From: a virus
Length of the DNA: 64,000 nucleotides
IMG/VR virus record: IMGVR_UViG_3300044701_004608
Coordinates: 47,783-111,782 of that record
Strand: one strand, 5' to 3'
Position 1 is the first letter of the stretch; every line of letters begins with the position of its first letter. Of the stretch, positions 1,519 through 45,923 are shown one piece after another. Made by a program: the position numbers and the translations under genes. The notes beneath the pieces were generated by a model, which was given only the letters and a program-made list of their open reading frames with translations, was not told where the DNA came from and searched no databases.

Positions 1519-1908
1519 CTATTCGGACAAATCAATCTTTTGCTGATTCTGTATATAAAGTAAAAAATATTCTTGTGCCGATTTGATGTGCTTGGCGGTT
1601 GATAGGAATCTTTTTGGGCCATAATGATAGGCTTTTTGGTGTTCAACTAAACGGTCTTTGATGGGAGAAATCTTTGAGGGTTCAGTATTGATCAACACCG
1701 TATCTACTAAATTAAACACAGTTTCCAACCATTTAAGATCGTCAAAGATATCAGCATAGAGATAGACATCAAAGTCTGTTCCGGCAGTTTTACATATCAT
1801 GCCTAAGTCTAATACAGTTTTTTGATTGGGGTCAATAACCAATACTGAATGGTTTTGTCTTTGTTCTAATTCGAGTATGTCTGGGGGGCTGATAAAGTTA
1901 CTATGCAT
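1519..1908 (-). CDS. Hypothetical protein
   Basis: 129-aa ORF overlapping the upstream gene end. Confidence 0.65.
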   Translation of the reverse strand: MHSNFISPPDILELEQRQNHSVLVIDPNQKTVLDLGMICKTAGTDFDVYLYADIFDDLKWLETVFNLVDTVLINTEPSKISPIKDRLVEHQKAYHYGPKRFLSTAKHIKSAQEYFLLYIQNQQKIDLSE

Positions 1909-3574
1909 TTTTTCCCGAAATTTTTAGATATTCATCAACTTGTGCTCGTTCGATATCATTAAGATCATCGCGGTCGTATTCACCGGATTTAATGCGTTCA
2001 ACGAGATGCAGTATATATTGTTCGTTATAGGCATAAGAATCTGTGGATTTTTTATCAACCTCTATCCACTTAGTGCCGTTCCATTTGAAGAGTTTGCTTG
2101 GCAAGTAATCTACTCGAAGATAGAGATCTCCTTTGTTGGGATCGCTAGGGAAGCCGCTACCGAAACTGACCTCACCGCCGGACAGTGGCACATCATTGAC
2201 ATCAGCTACCAACGAAAACTCTTCTTCGAGATTTTTTGGCATCGTTGTTAGCTGTGATTTTTGTTTAAATTGGTTGAGTTCATTGATGGCTTGTTCAGCG
2301 GCTATCAAGGCTTCTTCCATTTGCACATGCAAATCATTTTGTTGCTGTCTTAGGTCTTCAATCTCTTTGTTTTTCTTTTCGATCTCAACCGAGAGCACCG
2401 AATTGCGCTCAGTAATTTCAAAATTTTCTTTCTTTCTTTGATCTGCTATCTCTATAAAAGACGTGAGTTCAGTATCAATAGTCCTGATCGCTGTTTCAAA
2501 TTCTTGGATCTCAGAGTTTAATTTTTCTATATGTTGAGTCTGCTGGCGTATAGTTTCTTCGTAGGCGATCTGTTGTTGTTCGATTTCTTGTATGGATCGT
2601 GCCTGATCAATTATAAGATCAACATCGATTTCGGGTTCGATCTGTTGTGCTAGTTCGTTAGCACGATCAAGGTCGGACAGATCTTCATTCGCCACTGGTG
2701 CTTGCGCCAGTTCGTTACCCTCCTCTTTCTCGATCTCTTTTTTCCTCATCACTTCTCGATGATGGTCTTCGGTTTCAAAGTTTATTCCTTTAGCCCATTC
2801 GATCTGTTTGCTACCGGCAAGGATCAGCACGATAGCCAGTGGGTCGAACACTAGAACGATGAGTATGATCACCCAGCGCACGGCTTTTTCTAGTGTATTG
2901 GTATCAGGATTGTCACCATAGATCAGTGCGGCCACATATTTCACAGGACCCACTTCGGCTTCGATCTTGCGAAGATCTTTGGCTATAGGTGCTTTCTGTT
3001 CTTGTAACTTTACGATATTGGCCTGGGCCTGTTCGACTTGCTTGGTTAGTGCGGCACGATCTCGGGCCTGCTGTCTGCGGATCTGTAATGAGCGTTCAGC
3101 CGCACTATTAAGTTTAGTGGAACCATCTTTTAATTTAACTTCTTGATCCCCACTGGCGATGACACCATTGACGGCGGCGTCCATCTGTTTGATGACTGCT
3201 TGTGCGTTGGCGATATTATCACGCTCGATCTTGATCTTCTCATCGATGAGTGCTACCTGCGCGGCCACATCACCGGTGGGTACAGTCTGATCGAGGTGTG
3301 CCTTGGAAAGGAACCCAAAGATGCCCATGCTGGTGAGTAACATCAAGAAAGCCAGGGCAGGCACTAGATAACATTTATATGTCCAGGTAGCTCGACCCCA
3401 GTTGCGATGCAACCATACAGCAGTCATGAGCTTGCCGGCCTCGAGCGCACCGCCCATGATCACGATGGGCCAGAAAGCCGCCGCGAATATGGCTGTGAGA
3501 CCTAATATGGAGTAATAGGCAGCGACCACAGAAATCACTATGGCCACTGCCAGAGTCGCTATACCTAAAAACAT
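1901..3574 (-). CDS. Membrane-anchored long coiled-coil protein
   Basis: Several N-terminal TM helices, a further TM (VLVFDPLAI) and long heptad-rich segments; TAAATA at 3582-3587. Confidence 0.75.
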   Translation of the reverse strand: MFLGIATLAVAIVISVVAAYYSILGLTAIFAAAFWPIVIMGGALEAGKLMTAVWLHRNWGRATWTYKCYLVPALAFLMLLTSMGIFGFLSKAHLDQTVPTGDVAAQVALIDEKIKIERDNIANAQAVIKQMDAAVNGVIASGDQEVKLKDGSTKLNSAAERSLQIRRQQARDRAALTKQVEQAQANIVKLQEQKAPIAKDLRKIEAEVGPVKYVAALIYGDNPDTNTLEKAVRWVIILIVLVFDPLAIVLILAGSKQIEWAKGINFETEDHHREVMRKKEIEKEEGNELAQAPVANEDLSDLDRANELAQQIEPEIDVDLIIDQARSIQEIEQQQIAYEETIRQQTQHIEKLNSEIQEFETAIRTIDTELTSFIEIADQRKKENFEITERNSVLSVEIEKKNKEIEDLRQQQNDLHVQMEEALIAAEQAINELNQFKQKSQLTTMPKNLEEEFSLVADVNDVPLSGGEVSFGSGFPSDPNKGDLYLRVDYLPSKLFKWNGTKWIEVDKKSTDSYAYNEQYILHLVERIKSGEYDRDDLNDIERAQVDEYLKISGKNA

Positions 3575-3633: not shown

Positions 3634-3843
3634 TCAACCGAGAATAGTAGGTTTCCACGCCAAACACCAGTATTCTGGACGTACTGGTGCGAACCAGCGA
3701 CGGCACTGCCCAGAATCGAAATAGCCGCAATTACCACAGGCTTGGCTTCCCGGTGTTACACCGGGCACACCCGAAAGCTGATATTCGGGCGGCAGCTTTG
3801 GGCATATAGGTGTGCCATCGGGATACAGCCTCTGGTCACTCAC
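3634..3843 (-). CDS. HiPIP-like small Cys protein (putative 4Fe-4S)
   Basis: CGNC-x7-C-x11-WCLAW resembles the HiPIP C-x2-C-xn-C-xn-WC ligand pattern; no Tat signal. Confidence 0.5.
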   Translation of the reverse strand: MSDQRLYPDGTPICPKLPPEYQLSGVPGVTPGSQACGNCGYFDSGQCRRWFAPVRPEYWCLAWKPTILG

Positions 3844-4618
3844 TGGACGCCTCCGTGAAACGATCTGGGAACTGCAGGACTATGCCTTTGGCGAATATGT
3901 CCGAAAACGCTGGCGTGCCATCATACTGTCCGGCCAGGATGATACGGTGCGCTGTGTCCACCGCTTCGATATCGGCAGGCCAGTTTTTGCTGACGCGGGC
4001 ACGACATTGTTCGATCCAGGCCTGGAGCACTTTGCCAAAGATGGCCTTGACCACATCGGCGGGCCAGTGCTGGGGGTTGGCTTTTTGTGCGAAGTTGGCG
4101 AAATCGTCGAGTTCGGCATCGACTTTCTTGACTAAGGCATCGATGTTGCCGCCTTTCTTGAGCGTCTGCACGATCTCTAGTACTGTGAGTACAAACGATC
4201 TCATGTATTGTGCCAACTGTTTGCTGGCTACTAATCCATAGTAGGGGCGAACCGAGTCACCGATCTCGTCGATGTTTTGGAACAGTTGCTCTTCGACCAC
4301 GGCCAAGTCTTCGCCGTTGTGCAAGGCGCTGGTGATGTAGTTGCGCAGTCTCCACAGGTATCTAGCCCAGATGGTGCGCTGGTCCATGCGCCAAGTCACA
4401 GCGGGTTCTGTGTTGAACACCGATATCGTGCCGGGCACATACATGGCTGTTTCTGTGACCACTACGCCGTTGCCGTTGGGGTTACCGTTGCCGTTGGTGT
4501 AGCCGTTGCCGTTAGTGTAGCCGTTGCCGTTGAGTTTGACGCCGTTGATGGCTTCCAGGGCCAAGGGATGATCAAAGTGTTCTTCTTTGATGGTGTGTGT
4601 TATGAGTTTGTAAACCAT
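3836..4618 (-). CDS. Helical-bundle protein, paralog B, with NGNG repeats
   Basis: Shares MVYK start and W..Y.WR.R...YYG...NP..W...W...FA.GIV.Q.PDRF with 8559-9173. Confidence 0.75.
   Translation of the reverse strand: MVYKLITHTIKEEHFDHPLALEAINGVKLNGNGYTNGNGYTNGNGNPNGNGVVVTETAMYVPGTISVFNTEPAVTWRMDQRTIWARYLWRLRNYITSALHNGEDLAVVEEQLFQNIDEIGDSVRPYYGLVASKQLAQYMRSFVLTVLEIVQTLKKGGNIDALVKKVDAELDDFANFAQKANPQHWPADVVKAIFGKVLQAWIEQCRARVSKNWPADIEAVDTAHRIILAGQYDGTPAFSDIFAKGIVLQFPDRFTEASSE
4466..4531 (-). repeat. 18-bp tandem repeat encoding NGNG(YT/NP) x4
   Basis: Repeated gccgttgccgtt units; protein NGNGYTNGNGYTNGNGNPNGNG. Confidence 0.85.
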
Positions 4619-4633
4619 TTTAAATCTCCTTTG

Positions 4634-5155
4634 TTAAGATTGTTGTACATTGGCGATGACCCACCATGCGCCGTTTTGTCCCAGCAGAGTCACTGACTCA
4701 TAGGGTTGTTGCAATTCAAGTTCTTGATCTCTGCCTTCGAGATCGTTGCCACCTTGTGGGATGATCTTGGTCTTGTAGCCGCCGGGGCCACGCTGGTCCT
4801 TGATGATCAGGATCCTACAGATGGCACCTATCACTGGCAGTTTGATATCCACTGTCTTGCCCACGGATGGTTTGACGACTCCGATGTAGTAGTCATCGCT
4901 TTGTACCGTGTAGTCGGCGTTGACATAGCGTGTGACGCAGTTGTGATTACCCCCGCCACCGTTGGCGCTCAATGTACCATCGGCGGCCACTGTGAGACCT
5001 GTGCCGACCTTGACCACGCCCAGATCAGTGGTGGTGGCGATGTCAGCATCGATTTCAAAGTCCACGTTGCCAGCAGGCGCTGTAGGATCCGGAGGTATGC
5101 TTTGTTTCAAGGCTCGCCCTGCTCGCACTGCGGTGGGTGCGCGGAAGTAACTCAT
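4634..5155 (-). CDS. Mini-fibre protein (fibre repeat + beta head)
   Basis: ATTTDLGVVKVGTGLTVAADGTLS repeat plus DDYYIGV...LP...IIKD...W head domain. Confidence 0.7.
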   Translation of the reverse strand: MSYFRAPTAVRAGRALKQSIPPDPTAPAGNVDFEIDADIATTTDLGVVKVGTGLTVAADGTLSANGGGGNHNCVTRYVNADYTVQSDDYYIGVVKPSVGKTVDIKLPVIGAICRILIIKDQRGPGGYKTKIIPQGGNDLEGRDQELELQQPYESVTLLGQNGAWWVIANVQQS

Positions 5156-5164
5156 GATCGCTCC

Positions 5165-5557
5165 TTAGACCACGTGCCATTCCGTGCCACGGAAGATGAA
5201 ACTCACTGATCCGTAAGTCACGGTGTTGACGAAAGTGGCAGATCCATCGATGGTCTCGCCGCCAGTACCTTGGATGGTGATGTTGCCGGATCCTGGGCCC
5301 AGTTCGTCTTTGATGATGAACATCTTGCCATCGGTGCCAGTGGGCAGCGTGATGGTAGTGGCCACAGCCGAGTTCACTCCGATGTAGTAGTCATCGTTGG
5401 TGGCCGCGTAGTCCACTGTGACCACTGTAGTATTGTAGATGGGATTGCTGGGCGAGCCGCCTGTGACAGAGATCACGCCCCCGGTGATGGTTATTCCTGT
5501 GCCGGCCTGTACTAGGCCGAAATCTGTGGTTGATGCTAAAGGTACTTTGTATGACAT
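5165..5557 (-). CDS. Mini-fibre protein (fibre repeat + beta head)
   Basis: ASTTDFGLVQAGTGITITGGVISV plus DDYYIGVN..TITLP..GKMFIIKDE..TIDG..GTEWHVV; AAGGA RBS. Confidence 0.75.
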   Translation of the reverse strand: MSYKVPLASTTDFGLVQAGTGITITGGVISVTGGSPSNPIYNTTVVTVDYAATNDDYYIGVNSAVATTITLPTGTDGKMFIIKDELGPGSGNITIQGTGGETIDGSATFVNTVTYGSVSFIFRGTEWHVV

Positions 5558-5569
5558 GGTGTTTTCCTT

Positions 5570-6124
5570 TTATAGTTGTATGATGGTGCATCTCACGCTG
5601 GGTGTCGCTGGTCGGATGGGCCCAACTTGTGCAGGTGTAGTCAACAATCGCATGTTGACATCAGTGCTTTGCCAAGCGACCTGTATGTTGTCGCCGGCGT
5701 TTAACGCCACGGTGAAATTCCACGACGCCACCAACACTCCCACGGTGCCTTCCACTGACACCTGAGAGTTGGTATTGGGATAGGCTGTGCCATTGCGTAT
5801 CAGCCATAGGTCTGCGAGATCCGTCCCAGCGTCGGTCTTGTCGATCTGTATCACGAACTGGAAGTTGTAGTTGGCATCCTTGCTCACAGTGATCTGGGAG
5901 CCACCCACCAATGTGATGCCCACGTTGATGGCAGAGTTGTCAAATGTGATGATGTTGACAGCGTTGGCCACTGGGTTGGTCTGTGTCTGTGTGCTGAAAA
6001 AGTAGGCTTGATCCAGCAAGGCCACCGGCACCACGCTGATCACCCCATCAGTGACAGACAGTCCGGAGCCGGACTGTACCACTCCATAGTCACCGGCGGT
6101 GCTGATGGGCTGCTTGTAGGTCAT
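5570..6124 (-). CDS. Mini-fibre with C1q/BclA-C-like head
   Basis: Start revised to MTYKQP (TAATG overlap). Same N-terminal repeat, then ITFD..GITL..SQITV..YNFQF..IRNG..LNAGDNIQV jelly-roll pattern. Confidence 0.65.
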   Translation of the reverse strand: MTYKQPISTAGDYGVVQSGSGLSVTDGVISVVPVALLDQAYFFSTQTQTNPVANAVNIITFDNSAINVGITLVGGSQITVSKDANYNFQFVIQIDKTDAGTDLADLWLIRNGTAYPNTNSQVSVEGTVGVLVASWNFTVALNAGDNIQVAWQSTDVNMRLLTTPAQVGPIRPATPSVRCTIIQL

Positions 6125-6558
6125 TACACCACGTTCCATTCCGTGCCGTTGAACACCAGGGTTATGCTGGCATAGTCGGTGTTGAGCACATAAGTGGCAG
6201 CACCATCTATGGTGTTGCCGTTGCCGGACACTGTTATGTTGTTGGTGTTGGCGTCACCGTCGATGTCCTTGATGATCAAGACCTGTCCCACGATGGGACT
6301 GGCTGGCAGCACCACAGTAGCTGGTGCCGCTATGTTCACGCCCAGATAGTAGTCTCCGGGTTGCACGGCGTAGGGCGTGGAATTCACTATCGTGACATTG
6401 ACCGGGCTGGGACTGCCAGTGAATGTGCCTAGATTGATGAAGTCATTTCCCCAGCCACCAATGCTGTTGTTGAGTTGTGACACTGGCGCAGGGCGTGCTA
6501 CGGGTAAGAGACCCGGGCGGCGTGGGCGGAATATTATCGGGCTGTAGTACTGGAACAT
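6124..6558 (-). CDS. Beta-head paralog with Pro/Arg-rich N-terminus
   Basis: GDYYLGVN..VVLP..GQVLIIKD..TIDG..NGTEWNVV, paralogous to 4634 and 5165. Confidence 0.75.
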   Translation of the reverse strand: MFQYYSPIIFRPRRPGLLPVARPAPVSQLNNSIGGWGNDFINLGTFTGSPSPVNVTIVNSTPYAVQPGDYYLGVNIAAPATVVLPASPIVGQVLIIKDIDGDANTNNITVSGNGNTIDGAATYVLNTDYASITLVFNGTEWNVV

Positions 6559-6948
6559 TTATTTTTCCTTGTTTTCGTCAATGATGTCTTGTGCGGTCAA
6601 CACCTGTTTGACCTTGTTGATTTTTTTGGTCACTTCGTCCAAATTGGAGAATAGTGGGCCGGCCGCGGGTGCTTGTTCCACTGGTTCTTCAACTTCTGAT
6701 TCTTTGTCGTCAACGACGAACTTGAGAAGTTGTTCGGCCCGCTCTAAAATCTGTGCTTCTGTGGGATAAGGTGCGAATGGTGGATATGGCAAGCGTTCCC
6801 GGCGAGTTTTCCACACCAGATCAGCATCTGCCAACCACTTGTTGTGATCTTCGGCGCGCTTGTTGATGTATTCTTCGTTGAGGAGGGTGCGCGCCATCCT
6901 CAAGACCTCCATCCTATGTTTGGCTAGTTCAATGTCCTTGTCTATCAT
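6559..6948 (-). CDS. Hypothetical phage protein
   Basis: Start revised to the ATGA overlap; YPTEAQILERAEQLLKFV motif. Confidence 0.7.
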   Translation of the reverse strand: MIDKDIELAKHRMEVLRMARTLLNEEYINKRAEDHNKWLADADLVWKTRRERLPYPPFAPYPTEAQILERAEQLLKFVVDDKESEVEEPVEQAPAAGPLFSNLDEVTKKINKVKQVLTAQDIIDENKEK

Positions 6949-7148
6949 TGTTGTCCCCAATCACTGCGGTTCCATAATCTTTCATGTATGATATAACTGA
7001 TAGAGTTGATCACCAGTGTGGCAGCTCCTATCGATAGTCCTTTCCAGGGATCTCCAGTCACTACCCAACCCACTGTGCTGTTAGTGATCATCATCCAGAT
7101 CCTCCAGGTCAGAGTTTTGACTGCTGTGCGTGTCAGTGTGTCTGTCAT
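6945..7148 (-). CDS. DUF2061-like small membrane protein
   Basis: RTAVKTLTWR...VTG...YIIHERLWNR..WG. Confidence 0.75.
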   Translation of the reverse strand: MTDTLTRTAVKTLTWRIWMMITNSTVGWVVTGDPWKGLSIGAATLVINSISYIIHERLWNRSDWGQQ

Positions 7149-7396
7149 TGCCAGCGATCTAGCACGATAATCAGCACAGAGATCAAGGCTGTGGCTATTG
7201 AAACTGCTGTACCCACTACCTTGATCGTCTCTTGTCGATGGTGGTCACGATATTCTTTGAGCCGGGCCAGATCGTGTTCGGCCTCATCTATTCGTTTCTC
7301 GAGTGCCTGGTATCGTTCATGGCACAATTCTACATGTGCCTCAAGGTTGTCGCGCTCGATGCCGAGATACTTTTTGGCTGTGACCACAAAACTCAT
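7145..7396 (-). CDS. Coiled-coil + C-terminal TM protein, paralog of 24862-25131
   Basis: IERDNLEAHVELCHERY vs IEKKSLEAHVELCAERY. Confidence 0.75.
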   Translation of the reverse strand: MSFVVTAKKYLGIERDNLEAHVELCHERYQALEKRIDEAEHDLARLKEYRDHHRQETIKVVGTAVSIATALISVLIIVLDRWQ

Positions 7397-7400
7397 TGTG

Positions 7401-7661
7401 TTAACCCACTACAGTTGGTGTAGAAGTCTGCGCAACGGTATCCATGTCGCCGGTGTTTATCAAACGCTGACCTGACACTGCACTACGGTTGTAGTTGCCT
7501 ACAAATGTGTTGTTGGCACTTTGTACCGCGCCTACCCCAGGATAACCGTATCCCACACCGTATCCGCCAAATCCATAATTTGGCCATCCCCAGCCGCCCC
7601 ATGGGTAACGACGGTGAGCAAAGCTACCGTAGAAGGGGTGGTGATGATATAAACTAAACAT
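7401..7661 (-). CDS. Gly/Tyr/Trp-rich small protein
   Basis: Start revised to MFSLY (AAGGAG RBS). WGGWGWPNYGFGGYGVGYGYPG; C-terminus homologous to 7878-8441. Confidence 0.75.
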   Translation of the reverse strand: MFSLYHHHPFYGSFAHRRYPWGGWGWPNYGFGGYGVGYGYPGVGAVQSANNTFVGNYNRSAVSGQRLINTGDMDTVAQTSTPTVVG

Positions 7662-7680
7662 ATTCAATCTCCTTGTTAAA

Positions 7681-7707
7681 AGACGAGCAGGGATCACCCG
7701 CTCGTCT
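7681..7707 (-). terminator. Intra-operon hairpin (attenuator or stability element)
   Basis: AGACGAGC...GCTCGTCT stem followed by a short T run on the minus strand. Confidence 0.55.
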
Positions 7708-7715
7708 ACTCTCAA

Positions 7716-7862
7716 TTACCAGTAATAGGGACCGTAACCCCCACCGTAGTAGGGATAACCGTATCCATATCCCCAATATGGGTAGGCTAAGCCCCCATAG
7801 TAAGGATAACCAATACCGGCTGCCAGGTAAGGCCTGGCGTAACCCCAGGGCCTATAGAACAT
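7716..7862 (-). CDS. 48-aa Tyr/Gly/Pro-rich peptide (not in ORF track)
   Basis: MFYRPWGYARPYLAAGIGYPYYGGLAYPYWGYGYGYPYYGGGYGPYYW; GGAGG RBS. Confidence 0.8.
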   Translation of the reverse strand: MFYRPWGYARPYLAAGIGYPYYGGLAYPYWGYGYGYPYYGGGYGPYYW

Positions 7863-7877
7863 GGTCTCTTCCTCCGA

Positions 7878-8441
7878 TTAAGTGATCGAAGTTGGAGTCG
7901 ATGTCTGTGTAGTACCTGTCATGGTTCCGGTATTGACCAGACCTTGGCTAGAGATTGCACTGTTCAGTGCGTTGATAGCGGCTACGCTGTTAGCGCTCTG
8001 GTAAGCACTGACAGCACCACCGTAGGCTAGACCTAGACCACCATAGAGACCGTTAAGACCTGTCAGAGCTGTGTTGGTATTGATCAGAGCCGTGTTGAGG
8101 TTTTCACGGTTGATGCCGTTGATGAGCTGGCGTGTGAGTTCAGCTTGACCCATCACAGCTTCGCGTGTGCGAGCAGCTTCTTGCATGACGAGTGCGTCAG
8201 TGCGAGCGGCGGCCAACATAGCGGCTGTGTTAGCATCATTTACTGCCTGCTTGGTAGCAGCCAGTGCCTGGTCCGTGTGGAATGCTGTTTGCATAGCACG
8301 GTTGTTGATGTCGTTGCTTTGTGCGACTTGAAGTTTGTAGTTTTCGAAAACGCTGTCAGAAACTTTTGTGTTTACGGCCTGGATCTGTGCGCTCAGGGCG
8401 TAGAAAGGATCTGTTGTGAATGCTCCTGTTACATCTGCCAT
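7878..8441 (-). CDS. Ala/Asn/Gln-rich coiled-coil protein (putative major structural subunit of the cassette)
   Basis: AAGGAG RBS; first gene after a TAAGTA promoter; helical AARTREAVMGQAELTRQLINGINRENLN followed by GLYGGLGLAYGG. Confidence 0.8.
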   Translation of the reverse strand: MADVTGAFTTDPFYALSAQIQAVNTKVSDSVFENYKLQVAQSNDINNRAMQTAFHTDQALAATKQAVNDANTAAMLAAARTDALVMQEAARTREAVMGQAELTRQLINGINRENLNTALINTNTALTGLNGLYGGLGLAYGGAVSAYQSANSVAAINALNSAISSQGLVNTGTMTGTTQTSTPTSIT

Positions 8442-8466
8442 TTTAGTAGTCTCCTTGTAAATGGTG

Positions 8467-8496
8467 TTATACCGGACGTCCCGGTATAATTACTTA
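8467..8496 (-). promoter_or_regulatory. TAAGTA promoter with adjacent inverted repeat
   Basis: TAAGTA at 8491-8496; TTATACCGG-N5-CCGGTATAA at 8467-8489. Confidence 0.5.
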
Positions 8497-8512
8497 GAAG
8501 CAAATGGCCAAG

Positions 8513-8535
8513 AAAAAGCCAGGCTTGAGCCTGGC
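8513..8535 (-). terminator. Intrinsic terminator after the luxR bicistron
   Basis: GCCAGGCT/AGCCTGGC inverted repeat followed by TTTTT on the minus strand. Confidence 0.65.
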
Positions 8536-8558
8536 CTAGTACTTGAGTGATGCGATGA

Positions 8559-9173
8559 TCACGTTGCTATGGCAAATCTATCGGGACTCTGTTGTACTAT
8601 CCCCGAAGCAAACACATGGGCCAATTGTCTAGCTGTGTCGAAGCATCTGTCAGTCGCAGTGAGATCCTCGTTCCAGTTTTTAATCAACCTCATATTGATC
8701 TGCGAAAACCATGTCTCTACTAAATCCATCAATTGATTTTTGATATTGAGCATGTTCCATGCTCCGGGATTGAGTGTAGACATGAGATCAAATAATTCAG
8801 ATGCACTGTTTTTTAATTTAGTCACTAAATCCTGCACGAACATGTCTGTGTTGATATTAAAATTTACCGGAGGTTTCTTGATATAATCTAACAACTGTAT
8901 CATTTCAGTAGTCTGTGCCTCCATGATAGTACGCCATCGCTGTGCTGAATCAGTACCATAGTAATCATTGATGGTATCGAAAAAATCAGAGATGTTAGCC
9001 ATGACCCATTCTCTCGTGACTGGCATCTCAGGCATCCCATTCATTACAGCTACTAGGTGGCTACGATTTCGCCAGACATAATCGTTCCAGAGGTCGCGGG
9101 ACCTGGCATGGAAATTGCCTACTTTGGCAGGATCTTCTTGGAAGTATTGTGTTGTGGTGACTTTGTAAACCAT
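8559..9173 (-). CDS. Helical-bundle protein, paralog A
   Basis: Start revised to MVYKV, just after the luxR stop; aligns with 3836-4618. Confidence 0.75.
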   Translation of the reverse strand: MVYKVTTTQYFQEDPAKVGNFHARSRDLWNDYVWRNRSHLVAVMNGMPEMPVTREWVMANISDFFDTINDYYGTDSAQRWRTIMEAQTTEMIQLLDYIKKPPVNFNINTDMFVQDLVTKLKNSASELFDLMSTLNPGAWNMLNIKNQLMDLVETWFSQINMRLIKNWNEDLTATDRCFDTARQLAHVFASGIVQQSPDRFAIAT

Positions 9174-9175
9174 TT

Positions 9176-9856
9176 TTATAACCTCGCTCCATTGTTGACT
9201 GCCAGGGCCAGTTGTGTACGGTTCCTGACACCGTATCGTTTCAAGATGGCACTGACATGTATTTTCACTGTGCTTTCTGATATGTTGAGTTGGCGTGCGA
9301 TGGCTTTGTTTGACAAGCCTCGTTCGCACAACAGTTTCTGTACTTCTTGCTGACGATCTGTGAGTGTGACTTCGTCGCTGTGCGATTTGGTGTCTGCTTT
9401 AGAAGTCTGCTCCATACATTCACGGGGCCAGAAATCCTGACCTTTGGTGAACATCTCTTCATAGGCTCGCTGATTCAGATAATAGTCGAAATCGTCGATG
9501 TGTGGGATCACTCCCGAGATGCCCATGTCCTTGAATGCTTTGACCTGTTGCCGTGTCAAGGGAGTCCTTAATAATACCAGGAATTTGCTATCCACTTCGC
9601 CGAATCGACAATCAAGGAATATCTTGAAACCCAGCACGAGGTCCCGGAATCGTTCGTTAAATTCATCGACGATGTTTTGATCGATGGAGATGAACTTGGG
9701 GGGCGAGTCGAGATGGGAGATGAACCCAAACGCTTGCCTGACATTGTTGGCCGACAAGGGTTGGAACCCAAACTGTTTGCCTCGGTCATTGAATACCTGT
9801 GATTGTTTTAGATTCGCAGAGATCCTCAATCCCAGTGGTGTGTTTTCCGTGTGCAT
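9176..9856 (-). CDS. LuxR/NarL-family transcription regulator
   Basis: C-terminal [49 protein letters not shown]; degenerate receiver-like N-domain; start revised to 9856 (AAGGA RBS). Confidence 0.9.
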
Positions 9857-9990
9857 TAGAATTCCTTTTCTTACATAGATACTTACATCGTAGAAGCCAA
9901 GGAAAACTAGTACTTGGACGCGGGTCATACTTCATTAGGGTCTCGGTATGACTGTTGTATACAAAGATACACGATATTTTTTCACAGTCA

Positions 9991-10098: not shown

Positions 10099-10431
10099 TC
10101 AGTGTGTGTTGAGACTTGGTGAATATTGCCGAATCAATTCACGCTCACGGGCATGGGCGGGTTTGCGTCCACGCACGATCTCGATGAGACCGTAAGTGTG
10201 AGCTTCGGGGCCATGCTCTCTAATACTTTCGCATAGTGCCCATGACTTGTTTTCGGTGAGTGCTCTGCGGATGTGCTTCTGGATGCGGATTTTAAGAGCG
10301 CGGCGTACTTGGCTACCGCACACAGTGATGCCGATATACTGCTCGCCAGTCTGGGTGTTAGTGATACAGTAGACAGCATGTTTGGTGTCCTGTCTACGGC
10401 GTCTTTTTGGGGTGGGATTTCTCATTTCCAT
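10099..10431 (-). CDS. Free-standing GIY-YIG endonuclease-like protein
   Basis: AVYCITN..TGEQYIG, RIQKH, AHARERELI..LN; start revised to 10431. Confidence 0.8.
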   Translation of the reverse strand: MEMRNPTPKRRRRQDTKHAVYCITNTQTGEQYIGITVCGSQVRRALKIRIQKHIRRALTENKSWALCESIREHGPEAHTYGLIEIVRGRKPAHARERELIRQYSPSLNTH

Positions 10432-10437
10432 AATAAT

Positions 10438-10468
10438 ATTATACGAAAATGGGAATAATTGGTCAACC
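10438..10468 (-). promoter_or_regulatory. Sigma70-type early promoter
   Basis: TTGACC-N17-TATAAT. Confidence 0.85.
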
Positions 10469-10472
10469 AAAA

Positions 10473-39654: not shown

Positions 39655-40761
39655 TTATCCCGATATTGAACGACACAGAGCGATCGCGGCTGCGTTGGCT
39701 TCTTCCTCTGTGATCCTGGAATAACTCATTCTAATCGAAAAAAGATCAGGATCCTGCACATAAAATTCTCGTCCAGGTACGATGCTAACTCCTTCGGCTA
39801 ACGCTCGATCTCTCAATGACAAAGAAGATATCGTACTATGAGCCCAAAGAAAAATACCCCCTGTCGGAACGGGAAATTTTAGTTCCGGACAATGCCGAGA
39901 CAATGCGTCCACTAGGAAATCTCTTTTCCTGTGATACGATTTCCTTAGTTTTGATAGATGCACATTGATGTCTATTTTATGCAACATTTCGGCCGTCACT
40001 GATTGCAAAAAATACGAAGAGGCCATGTCAGTGATTTTTTTAGCTTCTACGAGTTTATTAATGATTTTGGGCTCTGCGATCACATAGGATAATCTTATTC
40101 CAGGGTTAAGAATTTTGGAAAAAGATCCCAGATAAATGACTCGTGTGGCATCAATGTCTCTCAATGGAGTACTGGTTTCGTCGAAGAAAATATCAGCATA
40201 AGCCGCATCTTCGACTACCAAGATGTCACGCTTTTGTGCTTCGCTCATAAAAGATTTTCTTTGGTCTAGAGTCCAACAACGACCAGTGGGATTTTGATAG
40301 GATGGCTCGACGTAGGCTATTTTAAAAACACCATCGGGTATCTCTGCAACATCTGGCATAGGTGTGATATCGGCTTGCACCCACGAAAATACATCTAGAG
40401 CGCCGCTGTAAGCGGGAGTTTCGACCAGCACTGGATCTCTTTGATCGATGAAAACTTTAGAGATAAGATCGATGCTCTGCTGGCTGCCACTAGTTATCAT
40501 CACTTGATTGACTTCTACTCCATGATACTGAGCGAGCCATTCCAACAATTCAGTACACCCTTGTGCAGGGCCATACTGGAAAGAAAGATATTTTTTATCC
40601 TGTAAAACTCTGGTCATGGCCGTCTGGAAATCATCGATAGGCATCAACCCCAATGCTGGGCTACCGCTGGAAAGATTCATGGTGCCGGGCGGAAGATCAC
40701 TGGAAAATTCTGAAACCGGACGACGATTAAAACAACGAGCGCGACTAGAAAACTCTGTCAT
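39655..40761 (-). CDS. PLP-dependent class I aminotransferase (MocR/LysN-like, no HTH)
   Basis: QYG, ITSGSQQ, YQNPTG, VEDAAY, GSFSKILNPGIR. Confidence 0.9.
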   Translation of the reverse strand: MTEFSSRARCFNRRPVSEFSSDLPPGTMNLSSGSPALGLMPIDDFQTAMTRVLQDKKYLSFQYGPAQGCTELLEWLAQYHGVEVNQVMITSGSQQSIDLISKVFIDQRDPVLVETPAYSGALDVFSWVQADITPMPDVAEIPDGVFKIAYVEPSYQNPTGRCWTLDQRKSFMSEAQKRDILVVEDAAYADIFFDETSTPLRDIDATRVIYLGSFSKILNPGIRLSYVIAEPKIINKLVEAKKITDMASSYFLQSVTAEMLHKIDINVHLSKLRKSYHRKRDFLVDALSRHCPELKFPVPTGGIFLWAHSTISSLSLRDRALAEGVSIVPGREFYVQDPDLFSIRMSYSRITEEEANAAAIALCRSISG

Positions 40762-41225
40762 TTAAGATATTCCTTGATCTTTTTGTCATCCCAGCCATGT
40801 TGCTTTGCGAGATCCTTGATCTCATCGTCAGAATTGATTGATGCTAATGTTTCGATTTCCGATTCCCTGAGATCCGGTCTCAGTTCTCTGAGTATCTTGA
40901 CTATCTTGTTATTCTTTTCTTTCTTCTTAGGAGAGATCCATTGATGATACTGACTACCCATGCCGGGGCTGACGGTCGTCGCTAACAGCCACAAGAATTT
41001 CTTGTGCTGGCTAGCGGATATGTCAAAGAAGTTCTTATTTAATCTCTCATTGGCACTCATGAGATAGTAGCTCTGTAACATGGGATCGCCACCAACGCAG
41101 GAACTCCAGCGTACCATCAGATAAGGAGAAAACTTTTTCTTTTCTTCGTCAGTCATGGCATCGTAGTAATCTCGATCCTTGCGATCCACCGCGGCCATTT
41201 CATTCTTGATGTTAAGTCTGTCCAT
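40758..41225 (-). CDS. Clamp-loader small subunit-like (gp62-like)
   Basis: FSPYLMVRWSS..ANE..HQWI pattern; replication context. Confidence 0.55.
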   Translation of the reverse strand: MDRLNIKNEMAAVDRKDRDYYDAMTDEEKKKFSPYLMVRWSSCVGGDPMLQSYYLMSANERLNKNFFDISASQHKKFLWLLATTVSPGMGSQYHQWISPKKKEKNNKIVKILRELRPDLRESEIETLASINSDDEIKDLAKQHGWDDKKIKEYLK

Positions 41226-41460
41226 TTTGTTTACTTAATTCGTAGATTATTATAGCACGATCCAAGGCTTCTTGTAAAGCAGGATTGGTTTTGGCTGCTG
41301 CCAAAATGTCGTGCCAGAGTTGTTGTTCTCGCAATCTCGCTCTCGTACCGTGTTGGTCAGTTCCGATCAGTATACGTTCGGATTTACCGATCTCTCGGGC
41401 GTAGATATCGCCGTCGGCGTTTTCATAGATATAAGTCGCGCCCGGAGTCAGTCTACCCAT
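41212..41460 (-). CDS. Hypothetical protein
   Basis: Start revised to MGRLTPG; YIYE..IYARE..NPALQEAL. Confidence 0.6.
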   Translation of the reverse strand: MGRLTPGATYIYENADGDIYAREIGKSERILIGTDQHGTRARLREQQLWHDILAAAKTNPALQEALDRAIIIYELSKQNGQT

Positions 41461-41987
41461 CCTAATATCTCCATCGCTTCTTTTTCGACACAGTATCTTC
41501 CAATGAACCGATCCACGAATCCTTCGATCACTTCTTGATGTAAAGGTAAACACGAAGAGTCGTACTGTTCTTTACACTCTATCTCCAGATTGTTATTGAA
41601 TGTGCTGGCAAAATATATCTTTGGTATAGGACACGGGATCACACACATGTTCACGAACTTATGATGTGGGTGCCCGTAATCGCCATCTTGATTATGAGTC
41701 AGTAATAGATCAAAGTCACGACAATGATCTTGTATATCCAACCTAGCAGACTCAGCATCGAAACTCAAGTTACCACTTTCAATGTCTCGATAGTCATCCA
41801 CATATCCCAAGAATATCGTTTTTACTTCGTGTCGATCCCAGAATCGTTTTATCTCTTGGGCACGAGGTTCAGCTTCAGTGTAGGTAAGATAAATTATCGT
41901 CCAGTCTAGTTGTTTTAGTTTCCGCATCAGCGGCCAAGCGAATATTACGCAATCGTCGGGATGAGCCACGATCACTCCCGCTCGCAT
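41448..41987 (-). CDS. PIG-L/LmbE-family deacetylase
   Basis: VAHPDD and THNQDGDYGHPHH. Confidence 0.85.
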   Translation of the reverse strand: MRAGVIVAHPDDCVIFAWPLMRKLKQLDWTIIYLTYTEAEPRAQEIKRFWDRHEVKTIFLGYVDDYRDIESGNLSFDAESARLDIQDHCRDFDLLLTHNQDGDYGHPHHKFVNMCVIPCPIPKIYFASTFNNNLEIECKEQYDSSCLPLHQEVIEGFVDRFIGRYCVEKEAMEILGWVD

Positions 41988-42491
41988 TTACCACACCTTC
42001 GAATAATTGATCACTTCGTTTTGGCGACCGATATCCTTGACAAAAAACACACACATGGGCTTTTCTTTGTTGCTTTCTAATGGCACGGCCAACAGTTGCC
42101 CGGACTTGAGTTTAGGAAAATACCATTTGACATCTTGATAGATGTCCACTATCTCTACGGGATGAAACTCAGGGCGGAAACTACTAATGGGATTAAAGGC
42201 AAACACATTGAACCCACGGTCATTGATCGAGGTGAGTGGTACTACTTCAAGATCGCCGAGATCGGGTTCGCCGATCAATATCTGCCAGTCCACCGGCATC
42301 TTAACTGTATGCTCTCCGATCTTTAGAACCAAAGCCGGACTATTAAAACTTTCAAGGAAGATCAATGGTATGTAAAAATAATCGGGATTCTTGGGGTCGG
42401 AGTTATCGAGGACACAGAATCGTAAATCGTCGACTTCCTCGGGTATCTCATTCATTTCGAAACTATGATTATCTAGGGTCAATATCCTCAT
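41988..42491 (-). CDS. Conserved hypothetical phage protein
   Basis: 167-aa ORF in operon. Confidence 0.65.
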   Translation of the reverse strand: MRILTLDNHSFEMNEIPEEVDDLRFCVLDNSDPKNPDYFYIPLIFLESFNSPALVLKIGEHTVKMPVDWQILIGEPDLGDLEVVPLTSINDRGFNVFAFNPISSFRPEFHPVEIVDIYQDVKWYFPKLKSGQLLAVPLESNKEKPMCVFFVKDIGRQNEVINYSKVW

Positions 42492-43306
42492 GGGGTGATT
42501 CCAAACCTTTCTGTTATTATTTTGTAGTAGACGTCAGCTAGGTATTCTTGGCTCTTGGGGTCGCCATGATACCCAGGGTCTTCGCCTTTGAACGGCCATT
42601 CGTTAGTGGCATACGCTGGTGTTTCTTCGTAGTCTAGAGTCATGTATCGATCCGGAAGAACAGACGGAAACGCTTCTCTCACTGTATTGCTGTTCCATAC
42701 ATTACAAGCGATATGTAGGAAAGGGATACCGGCATAGAAAAGTTCCATGATACCGTCGCGGATGATCCATTCGTCCTGCTGTCGTTTCCACTCGCTGTCA
42801 TAGAGATAATTGATCCAAGACTTGACAGCCTTCTGTGTATCTCGATCTATCTTGCTAGAGCGGTATGGGTGGTCATAGTTTTCTGCGAGGCTGAAGATCG
42901 TTTCACAGATCATGCGATAAGGATTGTTACCGTAGTTGACGTTGTTGATCCCGGCTTCTCGATCATACCCATTCAGATGGGCCTTCTGTAGATGTTGCTG
43001 TAGTTCGCTGTTCCAACCCTTCCAATCATTGTCGCGGAAGTCATAAGGAGCAGACCTTGCTGGGATTTCTGTGCGGTCGTGGAATGTAGGTGCGATGATC
43101 GCGAAGTCGGGTCGCTGTCGGATCACTTCGTCGATCTGTATGCGTATGCCGCCATTGGAACAGCCCTGGCGTGCTAGTATCTCTACGTCCCATCCTAGTT
43201 TCTTGGCCAGCACTTCGCCATAAGAAGTTCCTGCTAGTTCAGGGAATCTACTACTCGCTGGTGCGCTGAAGCTACATCCGCATACTATGAGTTTTTTCTT
43301 TTTCAT
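42488..43306 (-). CDS. SGNH-hydrolase-like protein
   Basis: GCSFS, ARQGCSN, C-terminal DPGYH..SQEYLAD. Confidence 0.65.
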   Translation of the reverse strand: MKKKKLIVCGCSFSAPASSRFPELAGTSYGEVLAKKLGWDVEILARQGCSNGGIRIQIDEVIRQRPDFAIIAPTFHDRTEIPARSAPYDFRDNDWKGWNSELQQHLQKAHLNGYDREAGINNVNYGNNPYRMICETIFSLAENYDHPYRSSKIDRDTQKAVKSWINYLYDSEWKRQQDEWIIRDGIMELFYAGIPFLHIACNVWNSNTVREAFPSVLPDRYMTLDYEETPAYATNEWPFKGEDPGYHGDPKSQEYLADVYYKIITERFGITP

Positions 43307-44760
43307 TTCCAATCTACCTTCTCCAAAGTGAACGGGTAGTTCGCTTCTCGGTAAAATTGCTTCCGTTTGGTAAGATGTCGTTTTGAAAACTTACATGTCG
43401 ATGTGATGTCCCAGATCTGTACAAAGTCTTTGTCCTCTGCCTTCCTAATACCTCGCCCAATAGATTGAATAACGCGGACAAAGCTCTTTCCGGGTTCCAT
43501 AAGAACCAGATTAAAGATCCTAGGAATATTAATGCCCACAGCGGCCACACCATAAGTCGCCACAATAATCTTCCCATCTGATATAGCCACTTCATCGTAC
43601 TCTTCCTTCCTATCTTTGGCCTTGGTGGCACCCGACACGAATACCGATCGGTCACCAAGTCTATTAACTAATTCTTTTCCTGTGCTGATACGATCTACCA
43701 ACACCAAGGTGTTGCCTGTTTCATTCACAGAGGCGATTAGTTTAGAAATATAATCCAGTCGCTCTCCGGTCTCTACTAGATACTTGAGCTCGCTCTGATA
43801 ATTCGTATACTCAACGTGATCTACTAATTGAACTATATTTACGTGACAATTCGCCAGGTGGCCAGCTTCTTGCAATTCGCTGGCACTGAGTTTTCCTACC
43901 ACGTTGCCTAGGCTACAGAAGATGCTGATCTTCTCGAAATCCTCTTTAGGGATAGTGCCAGTAAGTCCCCAGCGGATAGGGATATGACTCATGATTCCTG
44001 TGAGTAGAGTCTTGAGTGCGTCAGCCTTGGCCATGTGTACTTCGTCTACGATGATACACACTACATCCTCGATGAACTCACCGATAGTACAATCCGCTAC
44101 GCCGTTCTTGGTGTTCTTGAGCAGTACGTTCAGAGACTGCCAAGTACAGATCGTGTGTTGGCGACCCCACTCTTTCCTGTCACCGAAATACACACCTACA
44201 TCTAGGCCTAGGTTCTTATAATCATCCTCGGTCTGTGTGACCAAGCTCTTGTTAGGAACGATGACTATGCTCCGTCCTAGATGCTCTACGCTCTGGCTCA
44301 AGGCCGCTGTCATGATAGTCTTGCCAGCACCGGTAGCCACTTCTTGTACGCTCTGCGGATTGGCCAAGAAGTTGTTGATGATCTCTACCTGGTAGTCACG
44401 CAACAATATCGGTTCACCGGCTTTAGGATGGCCAGCAGGCCATTTCGTCTCAGCAAACGTGGTCTCGCACACTTGACGGAACTCGAAGTTCGTAGAGTAT
44501 TCACGCAGATCTTCTACTTCGAGATCGTACCCAGCACTCTCGAGCATAGGGATGATCTCAGGTAGCAAGTTGATATAAGTGCTACCGCCCAGCTGGAAGA
44601 ACGCTACACGGCCGTCCCAACGTCCCAGACGCACCGCAGGCAAGTATCTCGCCCCCGGGATCTCAAACTTAAACTTGTCTACTAGACGTTTCCGTGTGGT
44701 GAGATCAAGCCCTTCGATCTTCACATTCACTTCATCGCGTATATAGAGTTTGGCTAACAT
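43303..44760 (-). CDS. uvsW: UvsW-like SF2 helicase
   Basis: WDG, LRDYQ, ATGAGKT, DEVH, GLTGT, QSIGRGIR. Confidence 0.92.
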   Translation of the reverse strand: MLAKLYIRDEVNVKIEGLDLTTRKRLVDKFKFEIPGARYLPAVRLGRWDGRVAFFQLGGSTYINLLPEIIPMLESAGYDLEVEDLREYSTNFEFRQVCETTFAETKWPAGHPKAGEPILLRDYQVEIINNFLANPQSVQEVATGAGKTIMTAALSQSVEHLGRSIVIVPNKSLVTQTEDDYKNLGLDVGVYFGDRKEWGRQHTICTWQSLNVLLKNTKNGVADCTIGEFIEDVVCIIVDEVHMAKADALKTLLTGIMSHIPIRWGLTGTIPKEDFEKISIFCSLGNVVGKLSASELQEAGHLANCHVNIVQLVDHVEYTNYQSELKYLVETGERLDYISKLIASVNETGNTLVLVDRISTGKELVNRLGDRSVFVSGATKAKDRKEEYDEVAISDGKIIVATYGVAAVGINIPRIFNLVLMEPGKSFVRVIQSIGRGIRKAEDKDFVQIWDITSTCKFSKRHLTKRKQFYREANYPFTLEKVDWK

Positions 44761-45923
44761 TATAGGTGTGGTACCTTTGACTTTTTCTTGCTATTATACA
44801 CGCCCGGCGAAAGGAAAACAACCTTTTCAGAATTTTGCACCATCATCTGTCGCTCTCCCCCGGTTATTATGCCAGCTGAAGTGATTAACAACGGTATAGC
44901 GTGTCGAGTTATGGGTTTGATCGAGTGTACCACTTTCGCGCCGGGCAAGAAATCTCGGTTTTTCTTTGAGTTACCAATGACATCTATTTCATTTTCATCG
45001 AACACTTGTCTTAATACTTGTAGTAGTCGATTGGAAAGGTCGGGTTCATAGACCACGATCGGGTATCGTTTCGTCACTGAAGAATAGTCCTTGATTAGCA
45101 AAGCCAATGGAAGCAAATCGTCGGAATTGTGCTGTGATTCTCGGTTTAGCATCAATGACATTAGATTTTTTCCAAATCTTTTTTCGAAATCTTCTACTAT
45201 CTCATTGCTAACTGTGTAGCCCAATAATGACGAACTGTCTACTAATTCAACAATGTTTTCTAGGTCTAGTTTTCCTATATTGTCATTGATGTAATACATC
45301 AATGAATCATGGGCATTGGTGATTTCAAATACTTCCCCAACTTGTCTCAACTTGATATCATAAGGGTGAAGTTCAATACTCTTGATAGCTTCTGCGAAGG
45401 ATCTCGCATGTGCAGAGATTTCAAAAACATTTAGTTCTCCCCAAGTTACTGCCCAATTGATGTTGTATTCAGTTAATGCCATCTTCCATACCCGTGCTTC
45501 AGCGTCCCAATAGCAGTACCCTTGGCTTTTCTTTGAGAACTCACGTATCTCCTCGATGCTGGATTTTTCGTAACAGAACTTCAGCACTATCTCTCCATCA
45601 ACGACATCGATGCTCTTAGTAGTGTCGACTACTCGAAAAGGTTGTCGGAACTGGTTGAGATTTTCACGACGTGAATCAATTCCCATAGAGGCCAGTTGTC
45701 GGTGATACTTGTCGATGATTTTAACCAACAATTCACCTTGTCGCTCAGTGAGGGCATTACCGCCGATGGTAGTTTCGCTCATGTTTTGCAATACCGACAC
45801 ATCATAACGGGCTAAATTGATGATGGGGTTGAACCAGTTTAGGCCAGACGTCTTGAGTGTAGTAGGATCACGCAGCCCGGAAATCACTTCAAGATAGTCC
45901 TCAACATATTCGTATTTCTTCAT
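44760..45923 (-). CDS. Hypothetical protein
   Basis: Long ORF; start revised to MKKYEY. Confidence 0.7.
   Translation of the reverse strand: MKKYEYVEDYLEVISGLRDPTTLKTSGLNWFNPIINLARYDVSVLQNMSETTIGGNALTERQGELLVKIIDKYHRQLASMGIDSRRENLNQFRQPFRVVDTTKSIDVVDGEIVLKFCYEKSSIEEIREFSKKSQGYCYWDAEARVWKMALTEYNINWAVTWGELNVFEISAHARSFAEAIKSIELHPYDIKLRQVGEVFEITNAHDSLMYYINDNIGKLDLENIVELVDSSSLLGYTVSNEIVEDFEKRFGKNLMSLMLNRESQHNSDDLLPLALLIKDYSSVTKRYPIVVYEPDLSNRLLQVLRQVFDENEIDVIGNSKKNRDFLPGAKVVHSIKPITRHAIPLLITSAGIITGGERQMMVQNSEKVVFLSPGVYNSKKKSKVPHL

Follow-up and report, generated by a model that had tools for sequence, protein, structure and literature searches.

A cassette of 14 minus-strand genes in an uncultured giant phage is, in our preferred reading (probability roughly 0.4), a late-expressed structural module whose products form a fibrous appendage or decoration of several subunits, most likely attached to the virion. 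The cassette lies at positions 3634-9856 of the window, as we call the whole analysed stretch of 64,000 nt, which comprises bases 47783-111782 of the 111,782-bp IMG/VR virus record IMGVR_UViG_3300044701_004608 (G000). We favour this reading because the gene products include true fibre domains and collagen-like linkers, a late-type promoter precedes the main gene, the protein cc187 encoded there is conserved at the level of the major capsid protein (MCP), and the gene families are distributed in phages only. The gene order and sequence relationships support viewing the cassette as a single conserved module, transcribed together, whose paralogous subunits probably co-assemble and comprise major and minor products.

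A conserved block of paralogous genes

An earlier note, made from the letters of the window alone, had described a tightly coupled minus-strand block, separate from the head genes and with heavy internal paralogy. All 14 open reading frames are indeed there, and most of their junctions abut or overlap. The separation from the head genes is borne out by the relatives, in whose contigs the MCP gene and the gene of a gp21-type prohead protease lie about 30-85 kb from the cassette. The paralogy was upheld by blastp among the cassette proteins: the helical-bundle paralogues helA (8559..9173) and helB (3836..4618) share 25% identity (E 1e-23), and within a set of four small fibre proteins fib144 (6124..6558) and fib130 (5165..5557) are 46% identical (E 2e-23), fib130 and fib173 (4634..5155) 36% (E 1e-18), and fib189 (5570..6139) has an N-terminal motif in common with fib130 (E 4e-10). 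The C-termini of cc187 (7878..8441) and of the Tyr/Gly-rich protein YG86 (7401..7661) are 49% identical across 55 amino acids (E 5e-12).

Co-occurrence of these genes across genomes, which the same note had put forward as a check, was found as well. Scans of viral and metagenome contigs yielded 36 loci (numbered with L below), and tblastn with the window proteins recovered the block in the same gene order, with differing flanks, in about 28 viral contigs; a scan of viral contigs with the single helB sequence gave no match, and an alignment-based search was needed for this family. The usual order is the regulator gene luxR, one or two cc187 genes, Tyr/Gly peptide genes, hel, the membrane-anchored TMcc83, hyp133, the fibre paralogues, Cys69 and a further hel gene. 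Presence was counted at tblastn E ≤ 1e-4, the IMG/VR loci having been found via cc187. The luxR gene lies directly upstream of cc187 in 25 of 29 loci, and among the 21 loci with at least 4.5 kb of downstream sequence a beta-sandwich fibre gene is present in 20, hel in 19, hyp133 in 18, a C1q-like fibre gene in 13, TMcc83 in 11 and Cys69 in 8. A helA gene after luxR occurs only in the closest relatives (L010, L011), to which the DUF2061 gene is restricted as well. The number and type of fibre genes vary by locus and the cc187 and YG genes are constant. With the exception of a GIY-YIG gene, the genes flanking the cassette in the window recur only in the two closest relatives. As the flanks differ while the order is kept, the block is conserved beyond general synteny.

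Predicted promoter and hairpins of the cassette

The regulator gene and helA are followed by an intrinsic terminator (8508..8537, minus strand; 9-bp stem with six G-C pairs and a T run), the stem of which at 8516-8537 has a folding energy of -19.9 kcal/mol (z -4.4). Upstream of cc187 stands a late-promoter-like box, TAAGTAAT (8489..8496), next to a 5′ leader stem-loop (8468..8488) with 9-bp arms that is unique in the window (-11.7 kcal/mol, z -2.6). A terminator-like attenuator hairpin with a U tract (7681..7707) follows the gene of the Tyr/Gly peptide YG48 (-20.2 kcal/mol, z -4.1). The terminator, the TAAGTA promoter-like box and the hairpins that had been pointed out before are therefore all present, and the RNA elements fold well.

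These signals recur in the relatives. A box reading TAAGTA, TAACTA, TAAATA or TATAAATA stands 55-112 nt before the cc187 start in 24 of the 26 relatives' loci that yielded a result; the most divergent loci (L035-L037) carry the canonical T4 late box TATAAATA and the remaining ones close variants of it. A hairpin begins within a few bases after the box, differing in sequence and loop length from locus to locus, and in the window the combination of TAAGTAA with such a hairpin occurs at one place only, before cc187. We considered the palindrome at 8468-8488 as an operator of the LuxR protein and rejected it, as the relatives keep the hairpin position with unrelated sequence and loop length; variable sequence at a fixed position points to a stem-loop at the 5′ end of the mRNA rather than to a conserved protein operator. 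By eye, no conserved operator was found upstream of the promoter either.

The Tyr/Gly peptide gene has a hairpin directly behind it in every locus examined (22 of 22), with folding energies of -16 to -26 kcal/mol and mostly a T run; the stems differ in sequence while the pairing is kept. The conserved unit thus consists of promoter, leader hairpin, one or two copies of cc187, a gene of the YG-A family (to which YG48 belongs) and the terminator-like hairpin. The invariable presence of this last hairpin makes cc187 and YG-A look like the major subunits, presumably made in excess over the products of the downstream genes. Elsewhere in the window, an Hsp20 gene (334-849; phrog_432, E 2e-43) is preceded by TATAAATA and a GC-rich hairpin, a promoter and leader design resembling that of cc187.

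The putative rod protein cc187

The protein encoded by cc187 has a long helix, a Gly/Tyr segment and a conserved C-terminal tag. Between G001 and G004, two cassette-bearing relatives, its identity is 66-68%, compared with 68% for the MCP and 40% for a neighbouring head-region protein; in conservation, cc187 equals the major capsid protein. Its AlphaFold2 model shows a single uninterrupted helix from residue 12 to 165 and a disordered tail. The Fourier power of the cc187 sequence is 29.7 at a period of 3.6 residues and 1.0 at 3.5 residues, so that a canonical left-handed coiled coil with heptads (3.5-residue periodicity) was not found in cc187.

When three copies of cc187 are modelled together, residues 12-121 pack in register as a parallel bundle with an interface score (ipSAE) of 0.50, the best of three controls reaching 0.00. 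In the calibration of this score, 20 of 30 proteins solved as pairs came up to that value, as did 1 of 23 solved as single chains; the trimer run differs from the calibration in its use of our own alignment and of three copies. Contact agreement across the runs was at least 61% and the partner's predicted local distance difference test (pLDDT) at least 64, and the contact spacing mixes 3-4 and 3-4-4 steps, which fits the 3.6-residue periodicity. These predictions support self-association of cc187.

Pfam scans of cc187 gave no match. Searching 1.8 billion proteins with a profile retrieved longer relatives with 11-residue repeats (seen by eye) in the N-terminal part and the same tail at the end, again without an informative Pfam domain in these distant relatives; the name "ComE-like" that one source gives to one of them looks spurious. 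A relationship to R-bodies was considered too: the RebB profile (PF11747) matched nothing in the phage record up to an E of 10, with the control genomes silent as well, and no link between R-bodies and LuxR was found in the literature.

Tyrosine/glycine-rich proteins and shared terminal tags

YG48 (7716..7862), the candidate second major product, is a Tyr/Gly/Pro/Trp peptide with 33% Tyr and 25% Gly. According to composition and a regular-expression scan, nearly all loci have a gene for a Tyr/Gly-rich peptide after cc187. Most of the encoded peptides have the YG-A core G-Y-L-G/A-A-G-I-G-Y-P-Y, and those of the L035-L037 clade are Tyr/Pro-rich without it. A second family, YG-B, which includes the 86-aa YG86, is present in most loci and ends, like cc187, with the C-terminal tag (C-tag). 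Nothing relevant was found in the literature on Tyr/Gly-rich phage virion proteins.

The C-tag spans about 25-30 amino acids and reads S-A-I-x-x-Q, then V/I-N-T-G, then Q-x-x-T-P-T. The C-termini of some hel proteins are similar to it, and fib144 has a C-tag-like stretch before its head, at E 0.04 only (blastp). An N-terminal tag (N-tag), M-x-Y-K-x-I-T-H-x-I-x-E-E-H-F-x-H-P, starts one to three hel proteins per locus and in L017, L024 and L034 heads the Cys69 protein; it is nearly invariant and is followed, as seen in helB, by a disordered linker. Tags common to otherwise unrelated protein bodies suggest common docking sites, and docking is the role that we would assign to them from these sequence patterns.

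Small fibre proteins

The small fibre proteins link the cassette to known virion parts. The beta-sandwich head of fib144 matches Phage_depo_C (PF25692) with 27.7 bits (cut-off 25) and the long tail fibre proximal subunit family phrog_972 with E 6e-13, and tblastn with fib144 found matches in 105 phage records, mostly annotated as tail fibre. For fib130 the PF25692 score is weaker (17.3 bits), and PHROGs also ties it to the long-tail-fibre proximal subunit family; fib173 belongs to the tail-fibre family through paralogy only. The beta-sandwich domain is found in the N-terminal region of gp34-type fibres and in tail fibres of Pelagibacter, Pseudomonas and other phages. By their profile matches, these are ordinary phage tail-fibre or tailspike domains.

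The fourth protein, fib189, had been called C1q/BclA-like. This likeness is consistent and weak: a fib189 profile retrieved only three PDB sequences, all sub-threshold (9H38, E 0.025; 7R1M, E 0.1; 9H3D, E 0.34), which are the Bacillus exosporium proteins F-BclA-CTD, an exosporium protein and ExsF, respectively (PMC12357932). PHROGs links fib189 to the C-terminus of a minor tail protein. Its C1q/TNF-like head occurs also in small Limnohabitans and Acinetobacter phages, for which some GenBank records say C1q- or cerebellin-like.

Fibre genes of the relatives contain collagen-like Gly-Pro-Pro/Gly-Pro-Thr runs. At L035:4814-5587, L036:5013-5690 and L037:10167-10814, collagen-like repeats stand between a helical N-terminal part and the beta-sandwich head.

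Helical-bundle, membrane and HiPIP-like proteins

In its AlphaFold2 model, helB consists of the N-tag, a disordered Asn/Gly linker and a 7-helix bundle, with pLDDT mostly above 90 over residues 64-260; helA carries a truncated N-tag. The 29 homologues of the family all come from metagenome sources and contain no Pfam domain. There was no PDB sequence match for helB and no Foldseek match at E ≤ 0.001, and an assignment to a known fold was rejected, as VIA-align returned only generic helical bundles and rhodopsins at Z 7-9.6, the noise range for helical models. The suggestion in the earlier note that the family resembles proteins of spore-forming Firmicutes found no support, given the purely metagenomic homologues, the generic folds and the 94-100% viral clusters of cc187.

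Three further small proteins separate YG86 from the fibre genes. TMcc83 (7145..7396) is a helical protein with a C-terminal membrane anchor (Kyte-Doolittle 19-residue maximum of 2.56 at residue 60), the next gene (6945..7148) encodes the small membrane protein that had been named DUF2061, a naming that the Pfam profile confirms (54.3 bits, cut-off 23.1), and hyp133 (6559..6960) is helical and adaptor-like, its N-terminal domain heading a 307-aa protein in L037.

The last gene encodes Cys69 (3634..3843), a mini-domain with four cysteines (C36, C39, C47 and C60) that are invariant in the family and a nearly invariant W59. It shows the HiPIP (PF01355) pattern of C-x2-C...C...C with an aromatic residue before the last Cys. 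The best PDB match is the HiPIP PioC (E 0.045, all four Cys aligned), followed by 1HLQ at E 0.93, and Pfam HIPIP is the only family matched by members of the Cys69 family (4 of 11, best E 0.017), the window protein not being among them. Of the proposed HiPIP-like nature, the cysteine pattern and the consistent likeness to PioC and HIPIP stand, at sub-threshold scores. No signal peptide is evident in the sequence of Cys69.

The regulator

The luxR gene (9176..9928, likely start 9853) encodes an atypical receiver-like domain and a GerE/LuxR helix-turn-helix (HTH). GerE (PF00196) matches with 57.9 bits (cut-off 23.5) and the NarL C-terminal domain with E 7e-10. The family profile aligns to NarL 67-207, VraR 68-199 and VpsT 82-215, i.e., over the latter half of the receiver domain and the HTH, and LasR, RhlR, SdiA and CviR align over the HTH only. 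Pfam Autoind_bind did not match at E ≤ 0.1. By its domain matches the product is a receiver-type regulator of the NarL/VpsT class and not a LuxR-type quorum-sensing receptor. The Atlas assigns a VpsT-like receiver domain to it at 0.88, which we take as a lead only.

Like VpsT, CsgD and NarL, the protein combines a receiver-like N-terminal domain with a GerE HTH; unlike in these regulators, the phospho-acceptor Asp is not conserved. This residue is present in the window protein and some relatives and replaced in, e.g., L014, L017 and L019 (by eye), and it is not among the conserved columns of the family. The c-di-GMP motif of VpsT is W-[FLM]-[TS]-R, and in its place the cassette regulators have a nearly invariant W-P. 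Control of the cc187 promoter by this protein is what we infer. Some relatives (L015:5862-7007, L020:5951-7849, L022:6693-7841, L024:6688-7809) encode two to four tandem receiver-like domains before a single GerE HTH.

Source genomes and distribution

CheckV estimates the completeness of the record at 32%, which makes it a fragment of a genome of about 350 kb. G001 and G004, each about one-third complete, encode a gp23-type MCP (PF07068, E 1e-78 to 1e-99) and a gp21-type prohead protease (PF03420), for which reason the clade is treated here as T4-like jumbo phages; neither gene was found in the window's own fragment. "Moraphage" (PMC12619734) was considered and set aside as a different, non-T4 lineage.

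At E ≤ 0.001, cc187 has 768 homologues, on contigs of up to 332 kb from freshwater metagenomes; the best 120 of the 768 are 65-99% identical. The Atlas clusters of cc187 are 94-100% viral and unnamed. A scan with cc187 of 185,579 prokaryote species, one genome per species, gave a single match (L045, CAZXGO010000088.1), 90% identical and located on a 10-kb contig in a metagenome-assembled genome of Chitinophagales; this contig is likely to be a phage fragment that was binned with the genome, and a faint pointer to the host at best. In the GenBank phage collection there was no DNA or protein match to the block, to cc187 or to a distant cc187 relative. The cassette families are phage-only, and their bearers are most likely a widespread group of uncultured freshwater T4-like giant phages.

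A model of the assembly and its alternatives

The following scheme would connect these components. The regulator, probably phosphorylation-independent, would be made from its own luxR-helA unit, closed by the terminator. The T4-late-type promoter would then give rise to an mRNA that begins with a stabilising stem-loop and encodes two major subunits, cc187 as a parallel trimeric rod of about 16-23 nm with its Gly/Tyr segment and C-tag, and the Tyr/Gly peptide. The terminator-like hairpin may pass only part of the transcription on to the minor subunits: the C-tagged Tyr/Gly protein; the helical-bundle and HiPIP-like heads, which flexible or collagen-like linkers would join to a common N-tag; a helper anchored in the membrane; and four small fibre trimers whose heads are C1q-like or of the tail-fibre beta-sandwich type. 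The shared tags could direct the different subunits to common docking sites, and the virion is where we infer these sites to be.

Several points weigh against this scheme. A dedicated regulator and the membrane proteins TMcc83 and DUF2061 are unusual in a virion module, and the module does not adjoin head, neck or baseplate genes. If cc187 and YG-A are made in very large amounts, this would be as much in keeping with a bulk matrix as with a capsid decoration, and to our knowledge peptides with one-third tyrosine have not been described as virion parts. The GenBank phage collection holds no cultured phage with cc187. Finally, the loci belong to one phage lineage and some are near-duplicates, so that their co-occurrence does not represent many independent events.

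Some of these observations would find their place in an assembly formed within the infected cell and not on the virion, i.e., a proteinaceous coat, matrix, inclusion or condensate of rods and aromatic peptides with tagged minor parts, switched on by the regulator, much as the earlier note had proposed. We hold this to be unlikely, although one of the two major products is a rod and the other a Tyr/Gly peptide prone to aggregation, membrane proteins are encoded within the block, and the regulator falls into the broad class of VpsT, a matrix regulator. About 6 kb away, the same phage also has genes for CsgF, CsgG, a curlin-repeat protein and a CHASE2 cyclase, Hsp20 with its strong late promoter is encoded nearby, and the architecture of leader tag, linker, head and ExsF/BclA-like trimer recalls the exosporium nap. 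However, no signal peptides were seen in the block and hence no export route is evident, a cross-linking enzyme is absent from it, and CsgG was not found in the contigs of five relatives, which are fragments. The fibre domains are typical virion parts, and conservation of cc187 at MCP level fits a core part of the virion.

Alternatively, the block may comprise two or more functionally separate sets of collinear genes, e.g., unrelated, abundant late proteins (cc187, YG) followed by accessory genes for tail fibres or receptor binding, which we regard as improbable. The attenuator does divide the block into two expression classes, the fibre genes vary in number and type against constant cc187 and YG genes, and all loci come from one lineage. 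Against a division speaks that the order is maintained despite differing flanks and that C-tags and N-tags span the supposed boundary (hel, Cys69, YG-B, cc187), to which the C-tag-like stretch in the N-terminal part of fib144 may be added at its E of only 0.04; in L037, moreover, the hyp133 domain is fused to other head domains.

A more specific proposal by analogy, and one we consider rather doubtful, is a tag-addressed phage nap or coat resembling that of the Bacillus exosporium, with ExsF/BclA-like C1q trimers and trimeric rods as a platform, helical bundles and a HiPIP-like iron-sulfur domain as heads docked via the leader, Tyr/Gly proteins as cement and expression conditional on the regulator. 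If it were true, one phage could release differently dressed virions or wrap virions in a matrix.

Very unlikely are capsid-internal, scaffold-like proteins with the N-tag as a capsid-targeting leader and the C-tag as a shell-binding tail as in scaffolding proteins: relatives do encode a gp21-type protease, which in T4 cleaves at L/I-x-E sites that I-K-E in the nearly invariant N-tag, ahead of its disordered linker, may resemble, and cc187 is elongated, helical and presumably abundant, but scaffolds are seldom conserved at MCP level, the operon is shared with fibre genes, and the block is far from the head genes, where in G001 and G004 a separate gene lies between the protease and MCP genes.

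Comparison with known systems

In its expression design the cassette resembles pilus and fimbrial operons, which have a major-subunit gene, an attenuating terminator, minor subunits and a dedicated regulator; here, too, the major genes come first, followed by a hairpin and the minor genes, and a regulator is present. The block differs from such operons in having no signal peptides, usher or secretion genes.

T4 fibritin (wac) and the phi29 head fibres are comparable to cc187 in its modelled form, a parallel trimeric helical rod with a conserved N-terminal attachment region, a more variable middle and a conserved short C-terminal element, and, judged by the promoter, cc187 too is expressed late, in a phage of T4 type. 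Sequence similarity was not found, however, and cc187 has 187 amino acids, no foldon and a Gly/Tyr segment, appears to be made in large excess and differs in genome position. The branched multi-fibre and tailspike sets of large myoviruses and T4 gp34 are similar in comprising paralogous small proteins with an N-terminal adaptor motif and a variable head, and gp34-type proximal fibres contain the beta-sandwich domain in their N-terminal region as well (phrog_972). By contrast, the cassette proteins of this type measure only 130-190 amino acids and are encoded beside non-fibre components and a regulator.

The Bacillus exosporium nap and endospore appendages have in common with the cassette varied heads on collagen-like or low-complexity stalks that begin with a brief, conserved leader at the N-terminus, a C1q/TNF-like trimer among the components, and small Tyr/Gly-rich proteins alongside. 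In Bacillus, BclA, F-Anchor and F-BclA dock on ExsF (PMC12357932). The leader sequences are unrelated, though, and the cassette genes are confined to T4-like phages and lack any sporulation context. The matches of fib189 are sub-threshold (E 0.025-0.34), and C1q-like heads are common on phage fibres, too. We therefore treat the likeness as an architectural analogy and not as homology, apart from a weak C1q-type signal common to phage fibres.

Every core component is without a described family, though the main protein is conserved like a capsid protein. The conservative reading already adds a new fibre or decoration system to the T4-like phages, and the cassette offers a testable example of giant phages possibly building extra structures from tagged subunits. 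Its chemistry is unusual, with one-third-tyrosine peptides and a HiPIP-like domain, and it includes a dedicated receiver-type regulator. If this regulator gates the structural module, the make-up of the virion would be conditional.

Neighbouring genes

About 2.7-8 kb before the window start, on the same strand, the record contains a curli-like secretion gene set (L044:9792-15077, G000 39791-45076) encoding CsgF (61 bits), CsgG with an SH3 domain (162 bits) and a curlin-repeat protein (36 bits), together with a FecR-domain and a discoidin-domain protein. A functional tie of this operon to the cassette was considered and set aside on account of the missing CsgG in the relatives' fragments. At L044:4302-6431, the phage encodes a 709-aa protein with a CHASE2 sensor and an adenylate/guanylate cyclase domain.

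Upstream of the cassette, a GIY-YIG protein is encoded at window positions 10099-10470, with 20.3 bits in Pfam (below the cut-off of 22.6) and matches to homing-endonuclease PHROGs. In 16 loci a homologue with 44-53% identity precedes the cassette at a distance of no more than a few kb, an unusually stable position for a homing endonuclease. On the other side of the cassette, positions 1901-3574 encode a protein of 557 amino acids that has membrane segments near its N-terminus and a long helical stretch. The C-terminal part matches a PHROG labelled "virion structural protein" (E 3e-7) and bears a weak likeness to the fibre N-terminal motif (E 5e-4). Among the loci, this protein was met again only in L013, where it is encoded on the opposite strand.

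Two proteins encoded beside the cassette in relatives were classified by eye: a C-x3-C-x2-C protein at L013:5681-6556, possibly a radical-SAM enzyme, and one at L037:15035-15853 with an N-terminus like that of an NAD-dependent sugar epimerase. Both might modify cassette proteins.

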